DNA of 64,000 nt from a virus (lineage: Duplodnaviria > Heunggongvirae > Uroviricota > Caudoviricetes), in the IMG/VR virus record IMGVR_UViG_3300022916_000894; one strand, 5' to 3'. A program made the translations under genes and the position numbers. This document shows positions 7,842-37,628 of the stretch, one piece after another. A model generated the notes under the pieces. That model did not search any database and was not told where the DNA came from. It worked only from the letters and a program-made list of their open reading frames with translations. Positions within the stretch are counted from its first letter, which is position 1. Each line of letters starts with the position of its first letter.

Positions 7842-7933
7842 TTATTATTCTTTAACTTATACTACATTATAGGCAACAGTAATTTATTTTTTCGCTTAAA
7901 GCTTTTTTAGAAGAAGGAATTTCCATAGATTAC
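7842..7933 (-). promoter_or_regulatory. Putative leader of CRISPR array 2
   Basis: AT-rich non-coding sequence on the side where I-E-type repeat orientation places the leader. Confidence 0.4.
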
Positions 7934-7975
7934 ATGCTATATAGAAAGAAGCGTTGGATACTTAAAGGAGATAAA

Positions 7976-9106
7976 ATGTACAAATTTACTACAGAACAAG
8001 AGAAACATATAGTCAAAGAATACCAATCTGGCATCGGAACACCCAAATTGGCACAAGAACACGGATGTACCAAAAAGACTATTCAATTCCTATTAAAGAG
8101 ACATAATGCATTTAAAGGCAGAAAGAAATTCACAGAAGAAGAACTCCAAGAAATTAAACAACGCTATCTTAATTACGAAACCGCCAGTCAAATCGCAAAA
8201 GATTTTGAAGTAGGAGAAAGAGCAATCAAAAACAGACTTATTGAAATGGAACTTTATACGATAGGCAAACGTCGCCCAAAGACAAAACATTGGACTGATA
8301 AAAAGAAGAAAAAAGCAGTACAGATGTATAAAAAAGGGAAAAGAGTCAATGATATAGCAAGGCATTTTAACGTTACTCCATCAGGTATAAGATATACATT
8401 GGTTAAAAACAAAGTATGGAAGTTTAAAGGAGTGAGAAAATATACATGCAATTTTGATTTCTTTGAAAAAATAGATACAGAAGAAAAAGCATATTGGTTA
8501 GGATTTATAGGGGCAGATGGTAATGTATTTAAAAATTGTCTCCACATTGGTATACATGAAAACGATGTTAAACACCTTGAAAAATTTAGTAAACATATTA
8601 CTGGTAATTACCCCGTTAGAATCAAAACATATATATCAAGAGGTAAACCATCTAGCATAGCGAGGATAGATATTCATAGCAATAAGATAATAAATGACTT
8701 ATACAGATCAGGAATTACACCTAAGAAATCTCATACTATCTCTTGGCAAAAAACTACTAAAAATATTCCAAAACATCTTATACATCATTTCGTGAGGGGA
8801 TACTTTGATGGAGATGGCAGTTGGAAAAAAAGTGGTAAAAATGGTAACGGAATACATTTTTCTGTAGCGTGTGGAAGTGGTGATTTCATTTTGGGATTAC
8901 AAAAACAATTATGTTCTAGTTGTGGATTGTCAATGGTCAAAATCTACTCTAAAAAAACGAATGACAAAAAAGCTAATAATTATGCATTGGAATATGGTGG
9001 ACGTTTACAGGAAATACGTATCTATAATTGGATGTACAATAATGCTACATTATTTTTAGAGAGAAAAAAAGATAAGGCATATAAGTATTTATTCGAAGTC
9101 TCTTAA
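7976..9106 (+). CDS. Free-standing LAGLIDADG homing endonuclease with three N-terminal helix-turn-helix repeats
   Basis: Two LAGLIDADG motifs are present: YWLGFIGADGNV and YFDGDGSW. The N-terminal ~170 aa hold three ~50-aa helix-turn-helix-like repeats. AAGGAG lies 7 nt upstream of the ATG at 7976. The 7934 ATG given in the ORF track is probably not the true start. Confidence 0.7.
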   Translation: MYKFTTEQEKHIVKEYQSGIGTPKLAQEHGCTKKTIQFLLKRHNAFKGRKKFTEEELQEIKQRYLNYETASQIAKDFEVGERAIKNRLIEMELYTIGKRRPKTKHWTDKKKKKAVQMYKKGKRVNDIARHFNVTPSGIRYTLVKNKVWKFKGVRKYTCNFDFFEKIDTEEKAYWLGFIGADGNVFKNCLHIGIHENDVKHLEKFSKHITGNYPVRIKTYISRGKPSSIARIDIHSNKIINDLYRSGITPKKSHTISWQKTTKNIPKHLIHHFVRGYFDGDGSWKKSGKNGNGIHFSVACGSGDFILGLQKQLCSSCGLSMVKIYSKKTNDKKANNYALEYGGRLQEIRIYNWMYNNATLFLERKKDKAYKYLFEVS

Positions 9107-10510
9107 GTCGTAGACTTGTTTAGCGTCGATACATTCTTTTGGTATGTATTCCATATAATTAGTAGTTAAAAACCAGAACCAATGTTTAGGATATTGAGGG
9201 TTTACATGGTTCCCATACGAATCCGTTAATACCCACACTGCTTTTGGGTATTCGCATTTCTCTTTCTTAATAACTCGTTGTATCGTACTCTCAATACAAT
9301 CAAAAGCCGTACCACCACCGCCAAGGGCTTTCATATTTCCTTTTGTTATAACTACTTCATGCATCATTGTATCAAAACACCATAGACGTACCTCAAACTT
9401 GTCGCTAGGCAATGATGCTGCCGCATGAGCAAAACGATCAAATAGATGAGAGCAACTGCCAGAATTGTCAATCACGAACCATACTTTGATTTTGCCTTCT
9501 TCTTCGTATAAATCTTCTACTTCCATTTCAGTAGGCAAAAAGAAATCATTTGGTAATATGGTGAACCGTCTGTTTATTCGTACCCATTGTTCTAAGTCGC
9601 GTGAAGCAAACTTAACTTCTTTTAGCATCCACTTTTTAATAATGGTTTCCCATTTTTTCTTTGTAGGTACATTATCGACTTTAGAAAATGACCAAAAACC
9701 GCCAGCCCCAACGCCCGCAGTTTGATCGCCTTGACCGCTGCCATCCTTGGGCAATTTTTCTTCTTGAAAATGTTCATCAATCATATCTTCAAGGTCGCTT
9801 TTTTCTTCTTCCGTCATATCTTCGTTTAATTCTTCGATGATTTCTTTTAATGCCTCTGTGTCCTTTAATCCATCATGGTCGTCAAACGAATCACTACCAA
9901 GTCCTTGACCTTCTCCGCTATCGCCTTCTCCACCGCCGCCACCAGGAGTTATAGGAAGAAGATTATAATAGTATTCAAAGCTTTTGTTGTCGGGTGGAAT
10001 TCTGCCCTTTAAAGTCTCCAACATTTCTGGATGTCTTTTTGGATCAAAAACAGTATCTACCCAACAGAAGTCACGATAATCCCCATGAGGTTCAGCACCT
10101 TCTGGCAACATATCCTTTTCGAAGCCTTTAATCTTGTGTCTATTAAAACCGAATTTATTAACAAGCAAATGATTTACTACAATGTCTAGACATACATTAA
10201 CTGCTTGTCTATTGCTTTTTCTGACACCTTTCATCCTAACTCCATGATTCAGAATAAGATGGAGCATTTCGTGGCAGATAACAAAACGGCGGCTATAATC
10301 ATCGAGATAATTCCAAAATTTGGGATTGAATTCGAAAATCATCCCTTCGCCTTCTTTATTGAAGATCACGCCAGCAGTAGGGATTTTATCTGAAAAACCT
10401 GGTTTGCCCATTTCCCAAAATTTGTGGAAAATCACATGCTTATCTTGCAGACTATCAGCGATAGCAAAGAATTCATCATTATCTATTTTGGCTGTGACTG
10501 TTTCCGTCAT
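9089..10510 (-). CDS. Zincin-like metallopeptidase domain (HExxH) fused to a VWA domain (DUF2201-type partner of MoxR ATPases)
   Basis: HEMLH lies in the N-terminal half. A MIDAS-like VIDNSGS sits in the C-terminal VWA-like domain. It overlaps the next gene by 4 nt. Confidence 0.6.
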   Translation of the reverse strand: MTETVTAKIDNDEFFAIADSLQDKHVIFHKFWEMGKPGFSDKIPTAGVIFNKEGEGMIFEFNPKFWNYLDDYSRRFVICHEMLHLILNHGVRMKGVRKSNRQAVNVCLDIVVNHLLVNKFGFNRHKIKGFEKDMLPEGAEPHGDYRDFCWVDTVFDPKRHPEMLETLKGRIPPDNKSFEYYYNLLPITPGGGGGEGDSGEGQGLGSDSFDDHDGLKDTEALKEIIEELNEDMTEEEKSDLEDMIDEHFQEEKLPKDGSGQGDQTAGVGAGGFWSFSKVDNVPTKKKWETIIKKWMLKEVKFASRDLEQWVRINRRFTILPNDFFLPTEMEVEDLYEEEGKIKVWFVIDNSGSCSHLFDRFAHAAASLPSDKFEVRLWCFDTMMHEVVITKGNMKALGGGGTAFDCIESTIQRVIKKEKCEYPKAVWVLTDSYGNHVNPQYPKHWFWFLTTNYMEYIPKECIDAKQVYDLRDFE

Positions 10511-13080
10511 GATGCCTTTCTGCTCTTAAAATAGAATCCGTTCTTTACTGCCGCATATGCCAAAACAGCGGGGAAAGAGTCTTTGAATTTACTGAATTTA
10601 TAGCCATGTGTTTTCAGGTTATCAATGCACGTATTAATCATGGCAGGTAATTCAGTCCATTTCTTTACTGTGTCTCTGTGAGTCATCTTAATCACTTTTT
10701 CCAACACTGTTAATACTTTAATAGACGTATCCTTAGACATAACATTTGGCATTCCATTCTTAATAACATTGAATGCATCGATTCTGAAAAATGTAGAATC
10801 GAAATCGCCATCGATTTTATCGTCAAGTTGTTTGCCAAAAGAGACTGTTTCTTTTTTCTTTACTTGATAATTGTCTATCCTATTATCATTTACGGCAGGC
10901 GAATCCGGCATAGACGAGATTTGTTTCATGCCATCTTCTGAGAAACGCTTTCTGATTTGGCTGACCAAGGCTTTGTTCATGTCTGCTTTTTCAATTTCTT
11001 TCAAAGCTTCTTTGATCGTTTTATGCCTAGAATAGTTTTTCAAGGCCCACATCATTACGCTACTGCTTTGAGAGATAAGCATATTGATTTTTTCAGCAGG
11101 CATAAATGGGACAAAAAGATCGACCTTTACTCTATCTCTTAATATCTCATGTTTTGCCAAATCAAAATTATTCTCATTTTCTAGAAATTCTTTGATTTTA
11201 TCATCATCTTTTCCTACCATCAACGATTCTAGCTTCGCTATGATTGGTCTTTCTTTGATAATTTTGGTCAATTCTGCCGGATTACAACCCTTTGGCAATG
11301 CATAGCCAACATTTCCACCCTTGAAGAAAATCTCAAGAGCATAATCCAAACGACGAGGGGATACCTTAGTGATGATATCAGGATGCTCTTTTTTTAGTTT
11401 CTTCCACCATTCGATAGAACCATTTGCTACGTCTTTTCCATACTTGTGTATGAAATAAGGCATACTTGGTTCAAATTTCAATTCGATGTGGATTTGGAAT
11501 CTATCTTTTTGAGCAGGGTCCAATTTCTCAACGTCGAAATCTAGTTCTTCATCATCATCTGGGTTAATAGCCGCCCAAATTACTTTCAAGTTTTTGAATT
11601 CCCTACCATTAATAGATTTGAATTGAATCAATTCCATCACAGCATTTCTAATTTTTTTTGGGCTATTATGGACGAACACGCCTTGTCCTACTGCGAAGTT
11701 ATTATAATCATCCACAGTGATGTCATAAACATCTTCATAACCAGCATCTTCAATTTTAATCACTCTATGATTTTTGTTTTCTGAATATTCACTTTGAAAA
11801 TGATTTACAAAATTATCAAAAGAACCAAAGTGTTTTTCGAGAGTGCTGATTTTCATGAGGTATTTACCACGACTATTTTTTGCCAAATTTTTTATTCGAC
11901 TACGAATTGTTTCATATAATTCCGGAGTCAACAATACGCCTTCTTCTAATTGTGTTTTTAGAATTTTTATCGTGTATGACAGTCTCGCTTTACGATTAGC
12001 AGTTACTCTATCTATGTTGTCAAATTGCCCATTCGCCCATGCTTTTTTTGCTCGTTGAGACTGTTCGTTTTTCTTTTGTTTGTCCCAGAAATTTAAAGAG
12101 ATTTTCGACCTATTTTTTTTGTACTGCTCGTCTGATTGGCGTGTTTTTATAGATGCTGCGACGGCTTTAGAACGACTATTGGCATTACCTATCGTTCTTA
12201 AATAATGTAGTGGATATTTTTCATGTACAGTTTTTCCTCCATCTGAAGCGTGTTTAAAAATATGTTCTTCTTTTGAAAGCCGCTCGATATTTAACGGAGA
12301 ATTATTAAAACGATTTTTATCTTTATGATGACGATAACCACCAGTGCTTTTTTTGTATATTTTAGTTAAAATATTATATTTATCTGCTAAATGATAAGTA
12401 AATTCCCAACGAGTTGGTCGTACTGAAGAAACTAATTCATAACCATTTTTATTATATTTTTTGTATAATGCCATTAGAGCATCATCAGGTTCGAGATCAC
12501 CCGCTTTGACATATAAACCAGTCGTCAAAAGAAAAGGATGATCACCAGTACATCGTACAGATAACCCATTATCTAATGTGACTTTTATAACTTTTTGTTT
12601 TTTGCCAGTTTTTCTGGCAGAATGACCTCTTCCAACAGCCATACATTTATTTTTAAGATCATAACTATACACAAAAAACTCTTTTTTATCAACTAAATCT
12701 TTAATAGGAATCGAATAACCATCGGCTAATTGAATAGGAGTATCACCAGTTAAACATCTGTTAAATTCATCAAACAAAATTGCTTCTACTTCATCATCTT
12801 CAAATTCTCGTGGCTTAATCAACTTCAAATATGCTTTGCCTGTTTTTTTATCTTCAACCCGTGCTGGCACCCCAAGAAAGTCAACCCACGGGTCCATAGT
12901 GGCGGCAGAAAACATACGATAGTTCAGCCCTTCATTGTCCCATAAACTCTTAATAATGCTGGATTTGCCAACACCGTGTCTACCGATAAACAATACATTC
13001 CAATCGTTCTTAAGGCACAACTGTAATTTTTTGGTTAATGTATCTTCGGCTACAAAAGCACCTGTGTCAAAGTCGGCCAA
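10507..13080 (-). CDS. MoxR-like AAA+ ATPase interrupted by a ~370-aa intein
   Basis: Walker A is GRHGVGKSS. The Walker B region reads ILFDEFNR|C. Intein block A, CLTGDTPIQLADG, begins immediately after the NR. The intein ends in VFVHN|S, after which the ATPase sequence resumes. Confidence 0.7.
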   Translation of the reverse strand: MADFDTGAFVAEDTLTKKLQLCLKNDWNVLFIGRHGVGKSSIIKSLWDNEGLNYRMFSAATMDPWVDFLGVPARVEDKKTGKAYLKLIKPREFEDDEVEAILFDEFNRCLTGDTPIQLADGYSIPIKDLVDKKEFFVYSYDLKNKCMAVGRGHSARKTGKKQKVIKVTLDNGLSVRCTGDHPFLLTTGLYVKAGDLEPDDALMALYKKYNKNGYELVSSVRPTRWEFTYHLADKYNILTKIYKKSTGGYRHHKDKNRFNNSPLNIERLSKEEHIFKHASDGGKTVHEKYPLHYLRTIGNANSRSKAVAASIKTRQSDEQYKKNRSKISLNFWDKQKKNEQSQRAKKAWANGQFDNIDRVTANRKARLSYTIKILKTQLEEGVLLTPELYETIRSRIKNLAKNSRGKYLMKISTLEKHFGSFDNFVNHFQSEYSENKNHRVIKIEDAGYEDVYDITVDDYNNFAVGQGVFVHNSPKKIRNAVMELIQFKSINGREFKNLKVIWAAINPDDDEELDFDVEKLDPAQKDRFQIHIELKFEPSMPYFIHKYGKDVANGSIEWWKKLKKEHPDIITKVSPRRLDYALEIFFKGGNVGYALPKGCNPAELTKIIKERPIIAKLESLMVGKDDDKIKEFLENENNFDLAKHEILRDRVKVDLFVPFMPAEKINMLISQSSSVMMWALKNYSRHKTIKEALKEIEKADMNKALVSQIRKRFSEDGMKQISSMPDSPAVNDNRIDNYQVKKKETVSFGKQLDDKIDGDFDSTFFRIDAFNVIKNGMPNVMSKDTSIKVLTVLEKVIKMTHRDTVKKWTELPAMINTCIDNLKTHGYKFSKFKDSFPAVLAYAAVKNGFYFKSRKAS

Positions 13081-13081
13081 T

Positions 13082-14131
13082 TTATTGCTCCTTTGTTAAC
13101 TGATTCCACCATCCATGAATCTGCAAATTACTTGTCATTTCCTTGGGCAATTCACCAAACTTAGCAGCGAACAGAGGACCAGTTACAGCGGCATAGGTAT
13201 CTGCATCATAACCGATCAAGGAAACCCAACCCAATGTCCATACTCCATTTTTAGCAAATACTTCTTCTGGCAAATTCATTGGGGCTAAGAATTTCTTATC
13301 ATCTAAAGCCCACTGCAATGCCCACAAAGCGATCTGTAGCGTTAGCAAACAATAGCCAGCACAACGACTGAAATTACCGATGTACGGATTGAATTCATAA
13401 TGATGGAATTCTGTTTTTAAGATCGTTTGTTTTTCTTCTTCAATATCTTCTTTTCCTACTGTTTCTTTCCACGTAATTACATCTTCATTTTTGCTGTTAT
13501 TCAGCCATGTCTCCCAATCAGAGAAAAATGTTTTTTGCCACATTAAATCTTCCAATGGATTTACGCCTTCAAACAATTTATGAATAACCCATGTATGAAT
13601 TGCACAACAAATGACAGGCAGCGGAGCATAGTGAGTGATAATGCCATGCAATAACGACATTTCAAACGCTTCGTCCAAATCGTCTGTCAATCCGTTAATG
13701 ACACCATTTCGCATAAGGCTACCGTTGGCAGCACCTTGCTTATTCCCCTCATAAAAGGCTCTGCCAGATTCGTTCCATCTGCTTCCGTTGGCGATTCCGC
13801 TTAAAACTTCATGAGTGGTATTCCCAATATCTTTGGGATTGCTATGAAGCCATTTAACGAAATTGTTAGCGATATCGCTTGGGTCAAACGATTGCTTTTG
13901 GTACGCAGACTTTACGACAGCCCACGCCATATCTGTGTCGTCTGAATGCTCTCCTGCCTTCATGTTCCATTGTTCTCTACCAACAGGGGTAAAGGGCCAT
14001 CCTCGCTTTTTGTACTTTTTGTACAATTTATAGATGTTCCTATCCTTGAAAAACTCAGTAGTAATGCCTTGACAATCGCCAGTCGCTAATCCTACCAATA
14101 GTTTTCTTGTTTTTTCTTTGTCAAATTTCAA
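13082..14131 (-). CDS. ADP-ribosylglycohydrolase (ARH/DraG family)
   Basis: Motifs GLATGDCQG, HSDDTDMAWAV and GAANGSLMR match the ARH family. It is adjacent to the MoxR/VWA pair. Confidence 0.65.
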   Translation of the reverse strand: MKFDKEKTRKLLVGLATGDCQGITTEFFKDRNIYKLYKKYKKRGWPFTPVGREQWNMKAGEHSDDTDMAWAVVKSAYQKQSFDPSDIANNFVKWLHSNPKDIGNTTHEVLSGIANGSRWNESGRAFYEGNKQGAANGSLMRNGVINGLTDDLDEAFEMSLLHGIITHYAPLPVICCAIHTWVIHKLFEGVNPLEDLMWQKTFFSDWETWLNNSKNEDVITWKETVGKEDIEEEKQTILKTEFHHYEFNPYIGNFSRCAGYCLLTLQIALWALQWALDDKKFLAPMNLPEEVFAKNGVWTLGWVSLIGYDADTYAAVTGPLFAAKFGELPKEMTSNLQIHGWWNQLTKEQ

Positions 14132-30448: not shown

Positions 30449-30901
30449 TTATTCGGAATCCTTCTCTGATTCATAATTTTTCGACAATATCCAGAATGGA
30501 ATGACCTCAACATTTTTATGTTCATAAGATAAAACTTTTTCCATTTTCTTCCCGGCTTCCTCGTTCATTGTATGAATGACAATAGGAGTATCAATATGAA
30601 GCTTTTCTTCATGCATCACTTTTACCACATCAATTCCATCGCCATTGGGTCCACGGGTGTATGCTCCACCTAAGTCGTGATCTAGAAAGATTTTATCATA
30701 CTTATTAAGACACAATTTTGCGATAGCCCTAATTGGTCCGTGGGCGTAATCCACATTTCTCGCTCCAAAAGTGTTTAAAAACCACCCAATTCGCCAATGG
30801 TCGTCATCTAGTACAAATATTTTCATTACTCTTCCTCCATTGTGTCCCAGTACACTTGGCTTAATAGCCATTTTATTAATATAGGATTGCGAGATTCGCA
30901 T
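30449..30901 (-). CDS. Receiver-like (Rossmann-like) domain protein with LDDD...DHDLGG motifs
   Basis: It shares its motifs with the ORF at 62015..62368. Confidence 0.4.
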   Translation of the reverse strand: MRISQSYINKMAIKPSVLGHNGGRVMKIFVLDDDHWRIGWFLNTFGARNVDYAHGPIRAIAKLCLNKYDKIFLDHDLGGAYTRGPNGDGIDVVKVMHEEKLHIDTPIVIHTMNEEAGKKMEKVLSYEHKNVEVIPFWILSKNYESEKDSE

Positions 30902-31357
30902 TCGTCAGAAATTTTCTTCATAAAATTAGATGCCTCTGTCGCTAAACAATCAGCTTCTTTTTCCCATCCAATGATATAAGAATCTTTTTCGACACTTTCA
31001 AATGTCACCCGTATCAATTCGTTAATTTGCTCTGCTCGTATTGATATGGGTTGAGCCTTTAATATGGACTCTAAACGTAATTTCAAATAGTTATCAAAAG
31101 TATTGATTTTTAAATTCAATTCTTTTTGATAGTGTTCACATTCCAATAGATGGTGTTGGCCGACAAACGGAGGAGGCCAATCCAAATTTACTTTCATAAT
31201 TTCAAAAGCATAAATTAGGTTGCTCAGAACATTCAGTAATTTGAAATATCCTTTTTGGTCGTCATTCGTTTGTTCCAATTCTCTATAAGAGCGCACTAAT
31301 TCCAGTGAGGCTTTATGAATGTCCAGCCCAGTAAAACAAGACCCAAATGTCTTTTCT

Positions 31358-32161
31358 TTACGTACCATTTCCATACACCGTATTATGAGTTCTTGAGACG
31401 CGAATAAATTCACAGCATTTATTAAAATACTTTAACTTACTCGCTCCAACATACGTGCAAGCCGATCTTAAACCACCAAGAATGTCTTGAACAATATCTT
31501 CTGCCTTACCTTTATAGGGAATTGAAACAGTTTTTCCCTCAGAAGTTCTATATTTTTTTACTCCATCATGGTATTTTTCTTGTGCATCCTTAGATGACAT
31601 ACCGTAAAATTTCAAAGTTTTTTTACCAACATTTTTAGCAGTTTTTTCAAGTTCTGTTTCTACATATCTAAGGGCATCTTCCCAAGAATGAAACATTTTA
31701 CCTTCACCACTGTTTTGCTGTTCATACGAAGAAATCGTAATAGGAATATTCTCCTTGTCAACAATTCTTGTTCTCATGCTTTCTCGTACATAATTATTCA
31801 AAGATGAATAATATTCGTGTCGTTTTTGTTCTTCGTCTTGCAATTCGTGATATTCCCATTCGCCCTCACATTCGCTTGTGCCAGCGAAGAATCCACCCAA
31901 CATAACGAAGTCAGCACCAGCGCCAAATGCCTTACAGACATCACCTGTGACGTTACAGCCCCCATCAGAGCAGACATGACCATCCAATCCGTGTGCTGCA
32001 CTTTTTGTCTCTAACACCGCTGACAATTGAGGATATCCACAATTATGAACAACCATGCTCTCGACACAATAAGAATGATTGTTTTCAACTGTTAAATCAT
32101 AAACGTCTTCTAGATTAGATTTTACATTTTTTTTAAATACTTTTTTAAGTTTGAATTTCAT
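31358..32161 (-). CDS. guaC: GMP reductase/IMPDH-family C-terminal half, preceded by a ~40-aa C-intein (split-intein C fragment)
   Basis: It begins MKFKLKK...MVVHN|CGYPQLSAV...DGGC...[14 protein letters not shown]...FYGMSS...[16 protein letters not shown]. This aligns with E. coli GuaC from VGYPQLSAV onward. Confidence 0.8.
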
Positions 32162-32858
32162 GATTATTTTTCCTGTAATCTACTATCAGTTTGCACCAAC
32201 CGATCAATTCATCTTGTGACATTTTTTGTTTCATAAGATTAACATTTTTGTGTAACCACTGGACATTTCCTTTAATATAACCTTTTGAATTATCTATTCT
32301 ATCTAAACTCGCTGTGGTTTCTCCTCTTTGAAATCCACGAGAAGATCGAGAGAATTTTATATCAACTCCACTTAAAGAACATTTTTTTTCTTGTTTTAAA
32401 AATAATTTCCATGCGTACTTTATACTTATATTAAATTGATGGCTCCTTTTCGCTGCCCCTTTTCTTATATTGCCCCACCATTTTCCGTGTATGTCCTCAT
32501 AACCATTCCAAAACTTATTTTTTCGACTTCTTTCTTTTGAATATAAATAACATCCACAAGAAATATTTTCTTTTCGATTAATGGATTTTGTTGGAAATTC
32601 TCTTAATTTGCCACATTCACATTCACAAAGCCAGTAAATAGACCCGTTTTTAGACCCAATTTTTTTAATTACTTTTAGTTTATTAAATTGGTGTCCCACT
32701 AAATCCAACTTGGGTATTTTTATGTTGTTGTTTTTACAAAAAGTATAAATTAGACCCACAGAACAACCGTATTCTTTGGCTATATTTTTGACCTTTTGAC
32801 CTGAATTAATCTTCTTTTTAATATCTTTTTTTTCTAGATTAAATTTGGCTTTAGACAT
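32145..32858 (-). CDS. Free-standing HNH homing endonuclease located between the two halves of the fractured guaC gene
   Basis: A C-terminal HNH-type motif reads [23 protein letters not shown]. An N-terminal helix-turn-helix is present. Confidence 0.6.
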
Positions 32859-32920
32859 AATATTTCTCCATAGTGTATAAAATAGGTAAATCTATACTAT
32901 TTTATACACTATAAAATAAT

Positions 32921-33877
32921 TTATTCCTCTATTTCTATGAGAAAATGATGATCAGTTAAATTAACAGCTTCTACCCAATATGCAAAATTGTGTAAATTGT
33001 TTTCATTAACTAAATCAGCTTTGTTTTTATCGATTACATAAAACTCATGATCTTTTGTGCATATCACACCGTTTATCTCTAATAAATCTTCTTTTTCTTT
33101 TAGTCTATTATTTTTCTTAACTTTTTGATAAGTTCCGTCGTGAGTTAATACATAATTACCCACTTTGATATCTTCAATATTTATTAATCCTTTTTTAGTA
33201 TTAACTTTAGTCCCAGCAACAAAACAACCCGTCTTTATACGAGTCGTACACACACTTCCTGATCCAATCCCGCATTTTACGATATCTACACCGGAAAGGA
33301 TCAATTGTTCTGCCATTTCATAAGTCACTACATTGCCAGCCATTATAGTGCTATTCGGAAATTCTTTTCTTATCTTTTCAACTCGTTCCAAAAAATATTC
33401 CGTATATCCGTTTGCAACATCAATACAAAGCATTCTTGGAAATGTTTTCTTCATTTCTTTATAGCATCTAGTTCTCCACATTGGAGGTTGATTGCTTGTG
33501 TCAAAATCATTTATTTTTACATATAGTGCAACCGCTACTTCTTTCAATTTTTCAAAGTCATCATCGCCAATGCCAACAGTGTAAAAGACATTATCCCATA
33601 TGTTTTGATTGTCGGCAAAAAAATCTGTCAGTTCTTCGATTGAATAATGCTTATGTAATGCCGTGAGCATTTTGTATTCTGCTAATGCTTGAGCCATGGC
33701 AAATGTTCCGGTGGTGTCCATATTCGCGGCAATAATTGGTAAACCAGTCCATTCTTTTCCGCTATTTTTGAAAGTATATGTTCTTTCTAATTCGATATGT
33801 GATCGGGAGGGAACCTTACTACGTTTGGGACGTATTAAAACGTCATCAAAATCTAACTTCAATTCTTCCGTATGCAT
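32921..33877 (-). CDS. guaC: GMP reductase/IMPDH-family N-terminal half fused to a ~105-aa N-intein (split-intein N fragment)
   Basis: Extein motifs [27 protein letters not shown] and [18 protein letters not shown] are followed by |[10 protein letters not shown]... (intein block A). The frame ends in IEIEE-stop. Confidence 0.8.
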
Positions 33878-34320
33878 ATTATTTCCTTACAAGTGATTTC
33901 CTTCTTTCATTAATTTGTCCAAGATACTCACAGTGTTTTTTTCTTTATTAACGAAATCTGATTCTATCCTATTGAAAATACTTTTTATTGTATTCTCTAA
34001 TTCTGAATTTTTTTCTATCCCCAAATGGACAGACACTGTTTTCTTGGCTGATATACTACTGTGCCCGCTGGCATAACAACTAATTTCGTAACGAAATTGC
34101 TTAGACCAGAAACGCTGTTTTCTATAAATGGTTATCGAAAGATAATGTTCAAATCCAAAATCGTTACCATCTTCTGTGGCTATAAATGTTTCATAGGCAT
34201 CCCAATCTGTACATGGTGATGCCACCCACTTGTCTGTCGTATATTCTGTAGCTATTTTATTAAACAATTCAATGAATTTTATTTTTTCTTCGTCAGTAAA
34301 TGATGTTATTCTGTTGTTCA

Positions 34321-35082
34321 TTATTTCTCCAATTTCTCTAACGGATAAACCAATGGTTCCACAACAGCACTGATTTCCTCAAACGATGGTCTAATGTCTG
34401 ATCTTGTTCCTATTCCATCATCTGTTTTCACCAAAAATGTTCCATTCTTCTCTACATTACTCAAATCTGTAGCCCAATTTTTACCCTTTTGGTGCAACAG
34501 TTCGTGCATGTCGTCCTGATTCTTGTTCATTAATGCTTTGTGAGAATAGACAGAACGAGCATACATTTGTAAACTATTACGTTTCCAATCTTGGCAACGC
34601 CACAATAGGTAATTTGAAACATCTTCTCTTGGCACATTAAATGCTCTAGAATCAAAATAACCATTAGGAATAGGTCTTAACCTTGTTACTGCTGATCCAT
34701 TGACCACAATATTCTCGTCTAGATATCTATAATAACTATTAAAATGCAAAGTCATTACAGATGCAGACATAGATATCATTTTACTAAGATTGTAGTTAAA
34801 CCATCCTTGTGTGTTTATTTCATCATAATCTGTGATTACAAACGATGCTTCATCTGATTGGACATATCCAACCTTGAATCCCTGCATATCATCTGCCACC
34901 TGTTTTGCACCGTGAACCATTGCCGATATAATGTTCTTATCGAAAGGCTTTTCACAGTGTTTGGTGAATGTGTGAAATGCTCGTCCATCGACGCGACAGA
35001 TTACTGGCATTCTTCCTACAAGGAAATTACGAGAAACTCCCTCGTATCCTTTTATTCTGTCACCTAAACTTGTCTTATCCAT
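34321..35082 (-). CDS. Thg1-like protein (tRNA-His guanylyltransferase family, 3'-5' nucleotidyltransferase)
   Basis: RVDGRAFHTFTK, KPFD and GYVQSDEASFV match the Thg1 signatures. Confidence 0.65.
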   Translation of the reverse strand: MDKTSLGDRIKGYEGVSRNFLVGRMPVICRVDGRAFHTFTKHCEKPFDKNIISAMVHGAKQVADDMQGFKVGYVQSDEASFVITDYDEINTQGWFNYNLSKMISMSASVMTLHFNSYYRYLDENIVVNGSAVTRLRPIPNGYFDSRAFNVPREDVSNYLLWRCQDWKRNSLQMYARSVYSHKALMNKNQDDMHELLHQKGKNWATDLSNVEKNGTFLVKTDDGIGTRSDIRPSFEEISAVVEPLVYPLEKLEK

Positions 35083-35603: not shown

Positions 35604-37628
35604 TTATTCTTCAAATAAATCTGTTTCTTTTTCGACTTCGTAATTGGTAATTAATAATTCCTTGCCGACTTTTTTCTGTTTATTGTCTTCGCCAGCATCT
35701 TCTGAACTCGACGTTCCACAATATGTCCATTCCTCATCGAAAATATGGAATCCATCTTTTGGCAAATATAATTCTCTTATTAACTTATGATCGTCGTAAC
35801 TAATTAACACATTGTGTTTACATTGTTTAATAATTCCTGCCAACTTAATATGATCTTCTTCTGTGAAATTATTTGCATACAATTGTGAACTCTTAGCTAA
35901 ATCAGAATTTACGACATAAGGCGGATCACAATTATGCGACATAACACCATCCACACATATCAAATTATCTTTATCAACATGTAAATTGTAAACATTGCCT
36001 AAAAAATCAATATTTGAAATTCTTGTAATTCTTGACAAAATATAATCGTTTGTTATTTTACGCTGTGGTCTACTTTTGCCGCTTTCGATGTCATAACCTA
36101 ATTTTTTAATTTCATCGGCAATAGAAAAATAAACATCATAACAGTTTTGACGTTTTTTGAAGCCAGGTCGCAATTTACATTGGAGAGCTATGTCATACAT
36201 TTGTAAAGCTAATTCATAAGAAGCACTAGTGCCAGTTACTTTACCCTTACCGTTACCGGGATTCCAAAATCCCCCATCTCCCAAAAGCCACGATTTTAGA
36301 ATCTGAAATAATATTTTCTGAGGAGCTTCCAATATTTTATTGCTGAATCTTTTATTAGGGATATCACATCTGCGACTTTTTCCTTTAACCCATTTGCGGA
36401 TAAAAGAGCTTATTACAACAGAGTGGATGGCAACAGTTGTTACACTATCGCTAGGTGATTTTTCATAAACAACAGGCTTATAATTAAATACATCTTCTAT
36501 ATCTTGACAAAGCTTTTTGATTATTTCTTTTTCTTTTACACTAAAATAAAAATGCACTATATATTTTGAGGCAGTTCCTTCAGCGGAATAAAGCCCTAAT
36601 ATATTGGCAATTTTAATATCATCTTGAATAAAAGATATTTTATTTATCTTGGTTTTTCTTTTATCGCCGTAATATGGGTCACCTTTGTACGGCTCAAAAC
36701 CCCAGTTCCATTGATTGCCGTTGTCGCAGCCAACAGGGACACATAGATAATCCCCAATTTGTAATTTTCCGGCATCAATAAGTTTTATCGATTTCTCTAA
36801 TTTCTCAACGTTTCTTTTTTCTTGTTTAGAATTTATTTTTTTTATAGCCATCATCGGGTGATCATCAGTAATATTTATCATAAACGGTGAGCCTTGAATT
36901 TTAATATTTACGATTTTGCCATTATAATGATTACAAAAGACTTTTTTGACTGTCCTGCCTCCTAAGACTTTATCTCCAATTTCAATATTTTGTATTTTCT
37001 TAAGAGTTCTGTTGGCCATTTTAACTTTAGAATCTTTTGGAAAACAATATATAAAAACATCCTTACCTGGTTCTTTAAGCAAGATAGAAGCACAATGATT
37101 GGTTATTCTTGCTCCTTTTATATGTTTTGCTGCTTTTTCTAGTGTATCGCCTTTAACGATATTCCATCCTTGAGGATTTGAATAGTATAATCGTGAAGGT
37201 CTGTCATAATCAACTCTACCACCCCAATTAGTCCTATTAAGGAAGAAATAACGCAATGCCCTATCCATGTCTTTATCTGCAACGAATTTATCGAAAACCT
37301 CTTTTAAACGAGCGTTATAAATCTCTTTTCCGCCTGGTTTAGAGGAAGTTAGGGTTTCGCCCGCCTTTTGTGGTTCGATGGCCTTACAGAGCGATATAAA
37401 GGCTTCTGGGCGGTTCCTGAAAGCATCATAGACAGCTATTAGATTGCTGTCTATATCGTTAATCCACCGTTTTTTACATTTGGTGCTAGGGATATCGAAA
37501 AACAGCCCTCCACCGCCTACAAATGGTTCTCTATACTCAGAAAACTCTTTGGGCGCTTTAGCCCAGAGTTTATCCAATATGCTTTTTTTTGATTTTCCGC
37601 CAGGATAGCGAAACAGTGATTTCGGCAT
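35604..37628 (-). CDS. dam: Dam-family N6-adenine DNA methyltransferase interrupted by a ~395-aa LAGLIDADG intein
   Basis: YPGGK and PFVGGGG motifs are present. The intein sits at DVFIY|CFPKDSKV...VMSHN|CDPPY, i.e. at the catalytic DPPY motif. LAGLIDADG-like motifs ILGLYSAEG and WLLGDGGFW lie inside the intein. Confidence 0.75.
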   Translation of the reverse strand: MPKSLFRYPGGKSKKSILDKLWAKAPKEFSEYREPFVGGGGLFFDIPSTKCKKRWINDIDSNLIAVYDAFRNRPEAFISLCKAIEPQKAGETLTSSKPGGKEIYNARLKEVFDKFVADKDMDRALRYFFLNRTNWGGRVDYDRPSRLYYSNPQGWNIVKGDTLEKAAKHIKGARITNHCASILLKEPGKDVFIYCFPKDSKVKMANRTLKKIQNIEIGDKVLGGRTVKKVFCNHYNGKIVNIKIQGSPFMINITDDHPMMAIKKINSKQEKRNVEKLEKSIKLIDAGKLQIGDYLCVPVGCDNGNQWNWGFEPYKGDPYYGDKRKTKINKISFIQDDIKIANILGLYSAEGTASKYIVHFYFSVKEKEIIKKLCQDIEDVFNYKPVVYEKSPSDSVTTVAIHSVVISSFIRKWVKGKSRRCDIPNKRFSNKILEAPQKILFQILKSWLLGDGGFWNPGNGKGKVTGTSASYELALQMYDIALQCKLRPGFKKRQNCYDVYFSIADEIKKLGYDIESGKSRPQRKITNDYILSRITRISNIDFLGNVYNLHVDKDNLICVDGVMSHNCDPPYVVNSDLAKSSQLYANNFTEEDHIKLAGIIKQCKHNVLISYDDHKLIRELYLPKDGFHIFDEEWTYCGTSSSEDAGEDNKQKKVGKELLITNYEVEKETDLFEE

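Follow-up and report, generated by a model that had tools for sequence, protein, structure and literature searches.

How can a phage make a working enzyme from a gene that another gene has broken in two? This question is raised by guaC, the gene encoding GMP reductase, in a 64,000-nucleotide (nt) stretch of DNA from a Caudoviricetes virus (IMG/VR record IMGVR_UViG_3300022916_000894), which is called the window here. All coordinates are positions in the window, and the guaC locus lies on its minus strand. Three open reading frames (ORFs) follow one another in this locus: an N-terminal half of guaC, a free-standing gene for a putative homing endonuclease, and a C-terminal half of guaC. An earlier reading of the same DNA (the original prediction) described this as a fractured gene whose halves carry a split intein. 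The answer we favor, with a probability of about 0.92, is that the phage guaC carries a mobile cassette, consisting of a split intein of the IMPDH-1 lineage and a free-standing homing endonuclease, and that the two halves of the enzyme are trans-spliced and the cassette is spread by homing.

The GMP reductase and its insertion point

The N-half ORF (33877..32921) encodes 318 amino acids (aa) ending in ...FLIEIEE, with the stop codon TAA at 32923..32921. The endonuclease gene (32145..32858) encodes 237 aa. The C-half ORF (32161..31358, stop codon 31360..31358) encodes 267 aa, starting with MKFKLKK...SMVVHN and continuing with CGYPQLSAV. All three ORFs of the original prediction were found, including the separate endonuclease ORF, and they are tightly packed on the same strand. 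The Pfam IMPDH/GMP-reductase profile is divided between the two halves, with positions 2-190 in the N-half ORF and positions 182-321 in the C-half ORF. Hint and intein C-terminal signatures (Pfam, NCBIfam) are found at the inner ends of both halves. For each half, the best NCBIfam family is type-1 GMP reductase.

The N-extein (guaC residues 1-217; 33227..33877) matches Pfam IMPDH at 7.9e-31 and NCBIfam NF003470 at 2.6e-76, and it is colinear with the intein-free phage protein P0002 and with human GMPR1. The C-extein (residues 218-444, 227 aa; 31358..32041) runs from the +1 Cys in CGYPQLSAV to NTVYGNGT and matches Pfam IMPDH at 1.4e-31 and the NCBIfam GMP reductase family at 3.6e-63. Between them, a cassette of 1185 bp (33226..32042) is inserted between the codons of Gly217 and residue 218. 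Removing this cassette in silico restores what is, judged by its sequence, a bona fide GMP reductase. The spliced product has 444 aa and scores 482.6 bits against the GMP reductase family NF003470 (cut-off 397), and one of the alignment stretches crosses the splice junction. Against the type-1 family TIGR01305 it scores 454.6 bits, under the cut-off of 492.15, because two insertions split the match into three stretches. Its best match in PDB is human GMPR1 (2BLE; E 1.5e-116), aligned across the junction, and the top PDB matches are GMP reductases 1 and 2. The catalytic-loop Cys210 is present in a GSVCTTR motif, with its codon at 33250..33248 within the N-extein. No CBS domain, the subdomain that distinguishes IMP dehydrogenase, was found in the guaC halves, whose only Pfam matches are IMPDH and Hint.

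The insertion point lies seven residues past the catalytic Cys, in a conserved loop. The junction ...CTTR(V/I/L)KTG|VGYPQLSAV is common to bacterial GuaC-type proteins, human GMPR1, and the intein-free phage allele. The original prediction had placed the extein junction exactly at this point by reference to E. coli GuaC, with the +1 Val changed to Cys. The junction and the change hold against bacterial GuaC-type proteins, 2BLE, and P0002.

The intein-free P0002 (442 aa) is 83% identical in amino acid sequence to the spliced product. Its contig (L001) is syntenic with the window, carrying a Thg1-like gene, a small ORF, and guaC in both cases. The DNA alignment between the window and this contig breaks precisely at the intein boundaries. 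In the empty allele the junction DNA reads ...GGCAGTGTGTGTACTACCAGATTGAAAACTGGT|GTAGGATACCCTCAACTGTCAGCGGTA..., and the +1 codon is GTA (Val) compared with TGT (Cys) in the window.

The phage enzyme has two insertions relative to the bacterial and human enzymes. The one in the C half, described in the original prediction as ~70 aa, is real and measures ~72-76 aa (spliced residues ~279-354) in alignments to P0002 and 2BLE. The other, in the N half, has ~25-30 aa (residues ~118-147). Both are also present in the intein-free P0002. Therefore, they are a trait of the phage GuaC clade and are unlinked to the intein, and the implied tie between the C-half insertion and the fractured state is ruled out.

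When the N half was searched with tblastn against phage GenBank records, guaC was found in a minority of them, and in none of the records is 80% of the N half matched at a single place. No cultured phage in this August 2025 GenBank set, therefore, has a split guaC. Nor did megablast of 20 kb around the locus give any match among 50,697 phage records.

The split intein and the fate of the two halves

The N-intein (32924..33226; Pfam Hint_2 6.3e-08) ends in HHFLIEIEE. Its presence was correctly predicted, and its length is 101 aa, not ~105. The C-intein (32042..32161), with blocks F and G and the terminal His140-Asn141, has 40 aa as predicted and matches the NCBIfam intein C-terminal family TIGR01443 (23.7 bits, cut-off 15.6). 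Joined in silico, the two parts are 51% identical to IMPDH-1 (E 4e-43; IMPDH-1 sequence from the supplement of PMC7090010), with a gap only at the split point. The window intein and IMPDH-1 both begin with CF(V)xGT and contain the HEFYVIDK block; their N parts close with LIE(I/L)E, and their C parts open with MKFKLK. The resemblance to published split inteins that had been noticed by eye is thus borne out by alignment, both to GuaC/IMPDH and to known split inteins. According to PMC11168065 and PMC7090010, IMPDH-1 trans-splices efficiently both in living cells and in vitro.

The residues needed for splicing are in place. Cys1 directly follows the N-extein (...IKTG|CFVAG), block B of the N-intein has T57-K-D-H60 (CTKDHEF), and at the other end H140-N141 is followed by Cys+1 (VVHN|CGYPQ). 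In an alignment of 11 joined inteins of the IMPDH-1 lineage (A3), C1, T57, H60, D123, H130 (block F), and H140-N141 (block G) are invariant. These signatures place the element among class-1 split inteins, in the IMPDH-1 lineage, and show all splicing residues to be kept. The profile of the A3 alignment, searched against PDB sequences, matches inteins and related HINT-type domains. The AlphaFold2 model of the joined halves, built from a three-row alignment, has a pLDDT of 92.1 and a pTM of 0.86, and all 50 listed Foldseek matches in PDB are intein, BIL, or hedgehog HINT domains (TM ~0.7). The last 45 residues of the N-intein have a net charge of -7, and the first 16 residues of the C-intein have +7. 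The same polarity, negative N-intein and positive C-intein, is described for IMPDH-1 by Dassa et al. (PMC2677866).

In the proposed mechanism, the three ORFs would be co-transcribed, and the N and C polypeptides would be made separately and associate through their oppositely charged intein halves. These halves would then fold as a HINT domain and trans-splice, giving a GuaC of 444 aa with Cys in place of Val at position 218. That the window intein splices is inferred from its 51% identity to the experimentally tested IMPDH-1.

The same oppositely charged halves are also compatible with simple association. The intein parts may only dimerize, so that GuaC would work as an unspliced, non-covalent heterodimer, on the model of fragmented phage ribonucleotide reductases. 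A precedent exists in Aeromonas phage Aeh1, in which a free-standing HNH homing endonuclease splits a gene of nucleotide metabolism (nrdA-a / mobE / nrdA-b). There, the two NrdA chains and NrdB form an active reductase and no splicing is described (PMC2677866), unlike the splicing proposed for the window, and PMC3653736 calls this split made 'by an intein'. Another such case appears to be given in PMC3045599. However, C1, TxxH, D123, H130, HN, and Cys+1 are invariant across loci whose inteins are only 35-62% identical to that of the window, and the closest characterized relative splices efficiently. Moreover, the junction is seven residues past the catalytic Cys, and the conserved loop there would hardly accommodate about 140 extra residues. 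We therefore regard an unspliced heterodimer as quite improbable, although it is the alternative that survives best.

Another possibility is that an element carrying an endonuclease broke guaC, and that its halves are decaying fragments of a pseudogene. GuaC is auxiliary and is missing from many phages. However, when the split allele is compared with the intact one, the ratio of nonsynonymous to synonymous substitution rates (dN/dS) comes to 0.05 in the N half and 0.07 in the C half, and this disfavors a decaying gene. The halves, the intein, and the nuclease are also intact across loci that are just 52-64% identical, and the spliced product exceeds the cut-off of NF003470. A dead gene is even less probable than an unspliced heterodimer.

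Frameshifts do occur in metagenomic assemblies, and phage homing-endonuclease genes are often found in group I introns. The locus could thus be a contiguous ORF broken by a frameshift, or its halves could be joined at the RNA level. The identical N-half protein is found on 13 contigs. At five of these places, which come from ENA, JGI, and Logan samples, contigs that are long enough carry the ORFs of 318, 237, and 267 aa in order, and the four contigs retrieved, from different samples, and one JGI record agree in layout as far as they reach. Since the same three ORFs recur on contigs from at least five different samples, the split is not an assembly frameshift, a case that the original prediction had named as one possible refutation. 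The split termini are kept in loci just ~50-60% identical, and the N-intein end IEIEE and C-intein start MKFKLK are shared by the divergent loci and IMPDH-1. The nuclease has its own start codon and Shine-Dalgarno sequence and is preceded by a 62-nt untranslated spacer. Joining at the RNA level is rejected because an Rfam search of 30800-34400 at a permissive threshold found no intron family (no group I or II intron, and one small RNA match at chance level). Of all the explanations, an artefact or an RNA intron is the one we consider least probable.

The endonuclease and its expression

The gene between the halves encodes a protein whose AlphaFold2 model, made from the family alignment, has a pLDDT of 93.2. 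The model has three parts. An N-terminal three-helix helix-turn-helix (HTH) domain covers residues ~9-43 (32834..32730). It is followed by a Cys4 beta domain (residues ~57-103, 32690..32550) with C80, C82, C101, and C103, and by a nuclease domain of the beta-beta-alpha-metal type (residues ~120-210, 32501..32229) with the motif ASLDRID..GY..GN.QW.HK.VN..K. The C-terminal strand-strand-helix unit consists of residues 183-187, 199-203, and 204-210. Of the residues carried by this unit, A183, S184, D186, R187, G193, Y194, and N198 are invariant in the family, and H203, K204, N207, and K210 are nearly so. As modeled, the endonuclease is a PacI-like beta-beta-alpha-metal (HNH-superfamily) protein for which there is no Pfam model. 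PacI itself (PDB 3M7K) is a restriction enzyme without the HTH domain and without a homing role, unlike the window nuclease, and the sequence similarity between the two is too low for a profile match.

No Pfam or NCBIfam family was found for the endonuclease or for 41 relatives, except weak matches to the N-terminal HTH, and the window endonuclease has no Vsr or NUMOD3 match in these databases. The PHROG families 'endonuclease', 'HNH endonuclease', and 'endonuclease VII' match it at 1e-14 to 1e-22, including 3.4e-18 for families annotated HNH. Cultured phages have distant relatives of it, which bear the annotations HNH endonuclease, endonuclease, or hypothetical protein. A role in homing cleavage is suggested by the position of the gene, its conservation, and its co-occurrence with the insertion site in at least five loci. 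The endonuclease, with its HTH, Cys4, and PacI-like domains, would cut the intein-free guaC of co-infecting phages near ...AAAACTGGT|GTAGGATACCC..., and repair after cleavage would copy the whole cassette into the cut allele.

The region ahead of the endonuclease gene appears suited to restrain its translation. The 62-nt spacer contains an RNA hairpin (32857..32924, RNAfold) of -21.9 kcal/mol (z = -5.6; 0 of 200 shuffled sequences fold as well). Its arms form a perfect 15-bp stem (32911..32897 and 32885..32871). Extended, this stem takes in the GGAG Shine-Dalgarno sequence (32869..32866) as well as the first two bases of the start codon ATG (32858..32856). Within the 5' arm is TATAAAATA, similar to a late promoter of the T4 type, and the motif CTATTTTATACAC(TA) partly recurs upstream of the endonuclease gene in two related loci (L086 and L084). 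In fractured genes, 15 of 16 endonuclease leaders have hairpins, often with the late-promoter box TATAAATA, and these hairpins have been linked to the translational control of Aeh1 mobE, in which a hairpin holds the late promoter, hides the ribosome-binding site, and restrains translation (PMC2677866). By analogy with mobE, the hairpin of the window would bury the ribosome-binding site and limit translation of the endonuclease from a long transcript, possibly confining it to late transcripts that start in the hairpin.

At its other end, the endonuclease ORF overlaps the start of the C half by 17 nt (32145..32161), as seen from the ORF coordinates and sequence. An overlap of 11 nt is found at the same place in L082, L084, and L086, and fractured genes are described as having the 3' end of the endonuclease gene run into the downstream half (PMC2677866). 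The C half has an AGGA ribosome-binding site, located inside the endonuclease gene, from which it would be translated. A terminator-like stem with a T-run (33224-33247, minus strand) spans the junction of the N-extein and N-intein; it is probably a chance occurrence, with five such sites in the region compared with 1.8 +/- 1.4 expected.

Several points weigh against a spliced and homing cassette. For the window sequence, splicing, nuclease activity, the target site, and co-transcription are all inferred. The enzyme might be affected by the change from Val to Cys, which lies next to the conserved GYPQ motif. The endonuclease matches no curated HNH model and has the invariant D186-R187 at the end of strand 1 in place of the canonical first His of HNH, so that its chemistry and even its activity are putative. 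Of the HNH endonuclease named in the original prediction, what stands is the superfamily, on the strength of the modeled fold. The TATAAAATA box departs at one base from the consensus of T4 late promoters, and neither L082 nor L086 conserves it. A scan for sigma-70 promoters gave results at chance level (22 found, 22.3 expected).

Insertion sites and relation to known fractured genes

Fractured genes, including IMPDH-1, -2, and -3 from the Global Ocean Sampling (GOS) metagenome, were described by Dassa et al. in 2009 (PMC2677866). The window locus has the arrangement reported there, as the original prediction had recognized: a split enzyme, a free-standing endonuclease, a hairpin over its ribosome-binding site, and an overlap of ORFs. 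The host family is shared, and the published 'IMPDH' is evidently of the phage GuaC/GMP-reductase type. The order (N half, endonuclease, C half) is the same, and in the IMPDH fractured genes, too, a hairpin precedes the endonuclease, the ORF ends overlap, the N-intein is negative, and the C-intein is positive. IMPDH-1 is split at the same point (101/40 aa), a likeness that goes with the shared MKFKLK start and the 51% identity given above. The differences lie elsewhere. The native exteins of IMPDH-1 are GGG/SIC, at the site GxG|S(I/V)CTTR, whereas the window intein is found 10 residues downstream, at CTTRIKTG|C. The +1 nucleophile is Ser in the published IMPDH loci and Cys in the window. The published loci have a Vsr-like/NUMOD3 endonuclease, and the window has the PacI-like one with HTH and Cys4 domains. 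The type of arrangement, like the host enzyme and the intein lineage, had already been published (PMC2677866); what appears new is the non-allelic site, the different endonuclease, and the Cys at +1. Among open-access papers (intein databases lay outside this search), none was found on an intein at KTG|C of GuaC/IMPDH or on the window nuclease family as a partner.

An HNH nuclease in a fractured gene is not in itself a novelty. The PolB gene of jumbo phage MIJ3, reported in 2019, is a fractured gene with an HNH-type nuclease in a split intein (PMC6892783). While the type of nuclease is alike, the host gene there is DNA polymerase B and the intein lineage has Ser1.

Three insertion points are distinguished here: site A, GxG|S(I/V)CTTR, is the published one; site B, KTG|C, is that of the window; and site C is KAVGVG|...|SDFVMLGG. 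Of the 66 database relatives closest to the N half, 10 have their intein at site B and at least 28 have it at site A. An exhaustive search with the N-intein only gave, among its best 150 cluster representatives, two at site B (ranked first and second) and 89 apparently at site A. Another 35 of these 150, seen as N halves only, apparently lie two residues beyond site A, at GxGxx|C, directly before the catalytic Cys. This class includes P0256, P0260, P0262, P0286, and about 30 other cluster representatives of the IMPDH/GMPR superfamily. If the placement is true, the catalytic Cys itself would act as the +1 nucleophile.

The partner nuclease differs between the sites. The complete site-A loci from IMG/VR (L002, L004, and L019) have an endonuclease bearing NUMOD3, with a Vsr signal in one of them. 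At site B, a homologue of the window nuclease with 52-64% identity is found between the intein halves in L082/83, L084/85, and L086, and L095 has a member of the same family between its site-B halves (hmmsearch E 4e-84). The window nuclease family is thus conserved in at least five loci sharing site B. Another pair, L087/88, has the same site-B intein without an endonuclease, with a spacer of 20 nt. The third insertion point, site C, is occupied in P0005 (L093:4001-5560, also L094) by a split intein with Ser+1, again without an endonuclease gene and with a spacer of 70 nt; these two loci are syntenic, with a Thg1-like gene. A split intein without an endonuclease gene is the gp41-7 type of Dassa et al. 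2009. This state is seen in L087/L088 and L093/L094, whereas the window keeps an intact endonuclease.

In P0018 and P0029, site A holds a contiguous mini-intein of the same lineage. P0241 (L095:3001-5231) has both sites occupied: a contiguous site-A mini-intein (GIGGG|...|SACTTRFLAG) is followed by a split intein at FLAG|C, and the two are separated by only a 10-residue extein, SACTTRFLAG. The idea that the window intein is an allele of the published IMPDH-1 site was rejected, given the distance of 10 residues and this joint occupation in P0241/L095.

At the +1 position of the window, Val is the rule (74 of 76 sequences in one set and 67 of 81 in another). Cys is found there, without an intein at this position, in P0112 and in L019, L053, L055, and L069 (CTTR.KTG-C-G(Y/I)PQ). 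Such Cys residues may be scars left when a KTG|C intein was precisely lost; alternatively, the alleles may resist the nuclease.

In a neighbor-joining tree, the site-B N-inteins form one clade among site-A inteins (82 of 100 bootstrap replicates). The guaC genes that host them are scattered among site-A and intein-free genes. This discordance of the intein and host trees is as predicted by horizontal spread through homing. It is possible, at somewhat less than an even chance, that one intein lineage has moved among positions within about 60 guaC codons (GxG|S, apparently GxGxx|C, KTG|C, and GAG|S), and that the move to KTG|C coincided with capture of the PacI-like nuclease and its new target specificity.

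The window has 35.7% G+C, and its genes are nearly all on one strand. It encodes, among others, a NAD-dependent DNA ligase and a tRNA nucleotidyltransferase-like protein. Beside guaC lies a Thg1-like tRNA-His guanylyltransferase gene (34321-35082, minus strand; Pfam 2.4e-26), which adjoins guaC also in L001, L086, L093, and L094. Downstream of guaC is a gene for a protein with a cREC_REC cyclic-phosphate-processing receiver domain (30449-30901, minus strand; Pfam 1.8e-12). Two more inteins bring the number in the window to three. One is a full-size intein with LAGLIDADG-like motifs (FIY|CFPKDS...MSHN|CDPPY), inserted at the catalytic DPPY of a D12-class (Dam-type) adenine methyltransferase (35604-37628, minus strand; Pfam MethyltransfD12 6.5e-25, Intein_splicing 1e-08). 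The other occupies residues ~122-477 of an 862-aa P-loop ATPase (10510-13095, minus strand; Pfam Intein_splicing 7.1e-23). A free-standing ORF at 7883-9103 (plus strand, opposite to its neighbors) has several HTH motifs, LAGLIDADG_3, and a PHROG endonuclease match at 1.1e-57; it is probably another homing-endonuclease gene. The adjoining ORF at 9092-10525 (minus strand) matches a PHROG family annotated HNH endonuclease and has a metallopeptidase-like Pfam domain. In IMG/VR, related contigs are classed as viral, and site-B contig L082 carries a homologue of rIIB. Most likely, the DNA comes from a large phage rich in selfish elements, with a genome of about 190 kb (188 kb in the longest contig).

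The locus mainly confirms known biology: fractured genes have been described since 2009, and IMPDH-1 is already a laboratory tool. The window intein is close to IMPDH-1, which is among the fastest known, and its Cys+1 and KTG/CGY junctions make it a candidate orthogonal ligation tool. The nuclease belongs to an uncharacterized family (HTH, Cys4, and PacI-like domains) that is widespread in phages and has no Pfam model, and the empty allele allows a guess at its target. With a non-allelic site and a different nuclease in the same enzyme loop, the locus illustrates concretely how inteins come to occupy new sites. If the proposed movement of one lineage among guaC positions is true, phage guaC would be a natural system for intein site switching via endonuclease exchange and would, in addition, supply a Cys+1 split intein possibly orthogonal to IMPDH-1.

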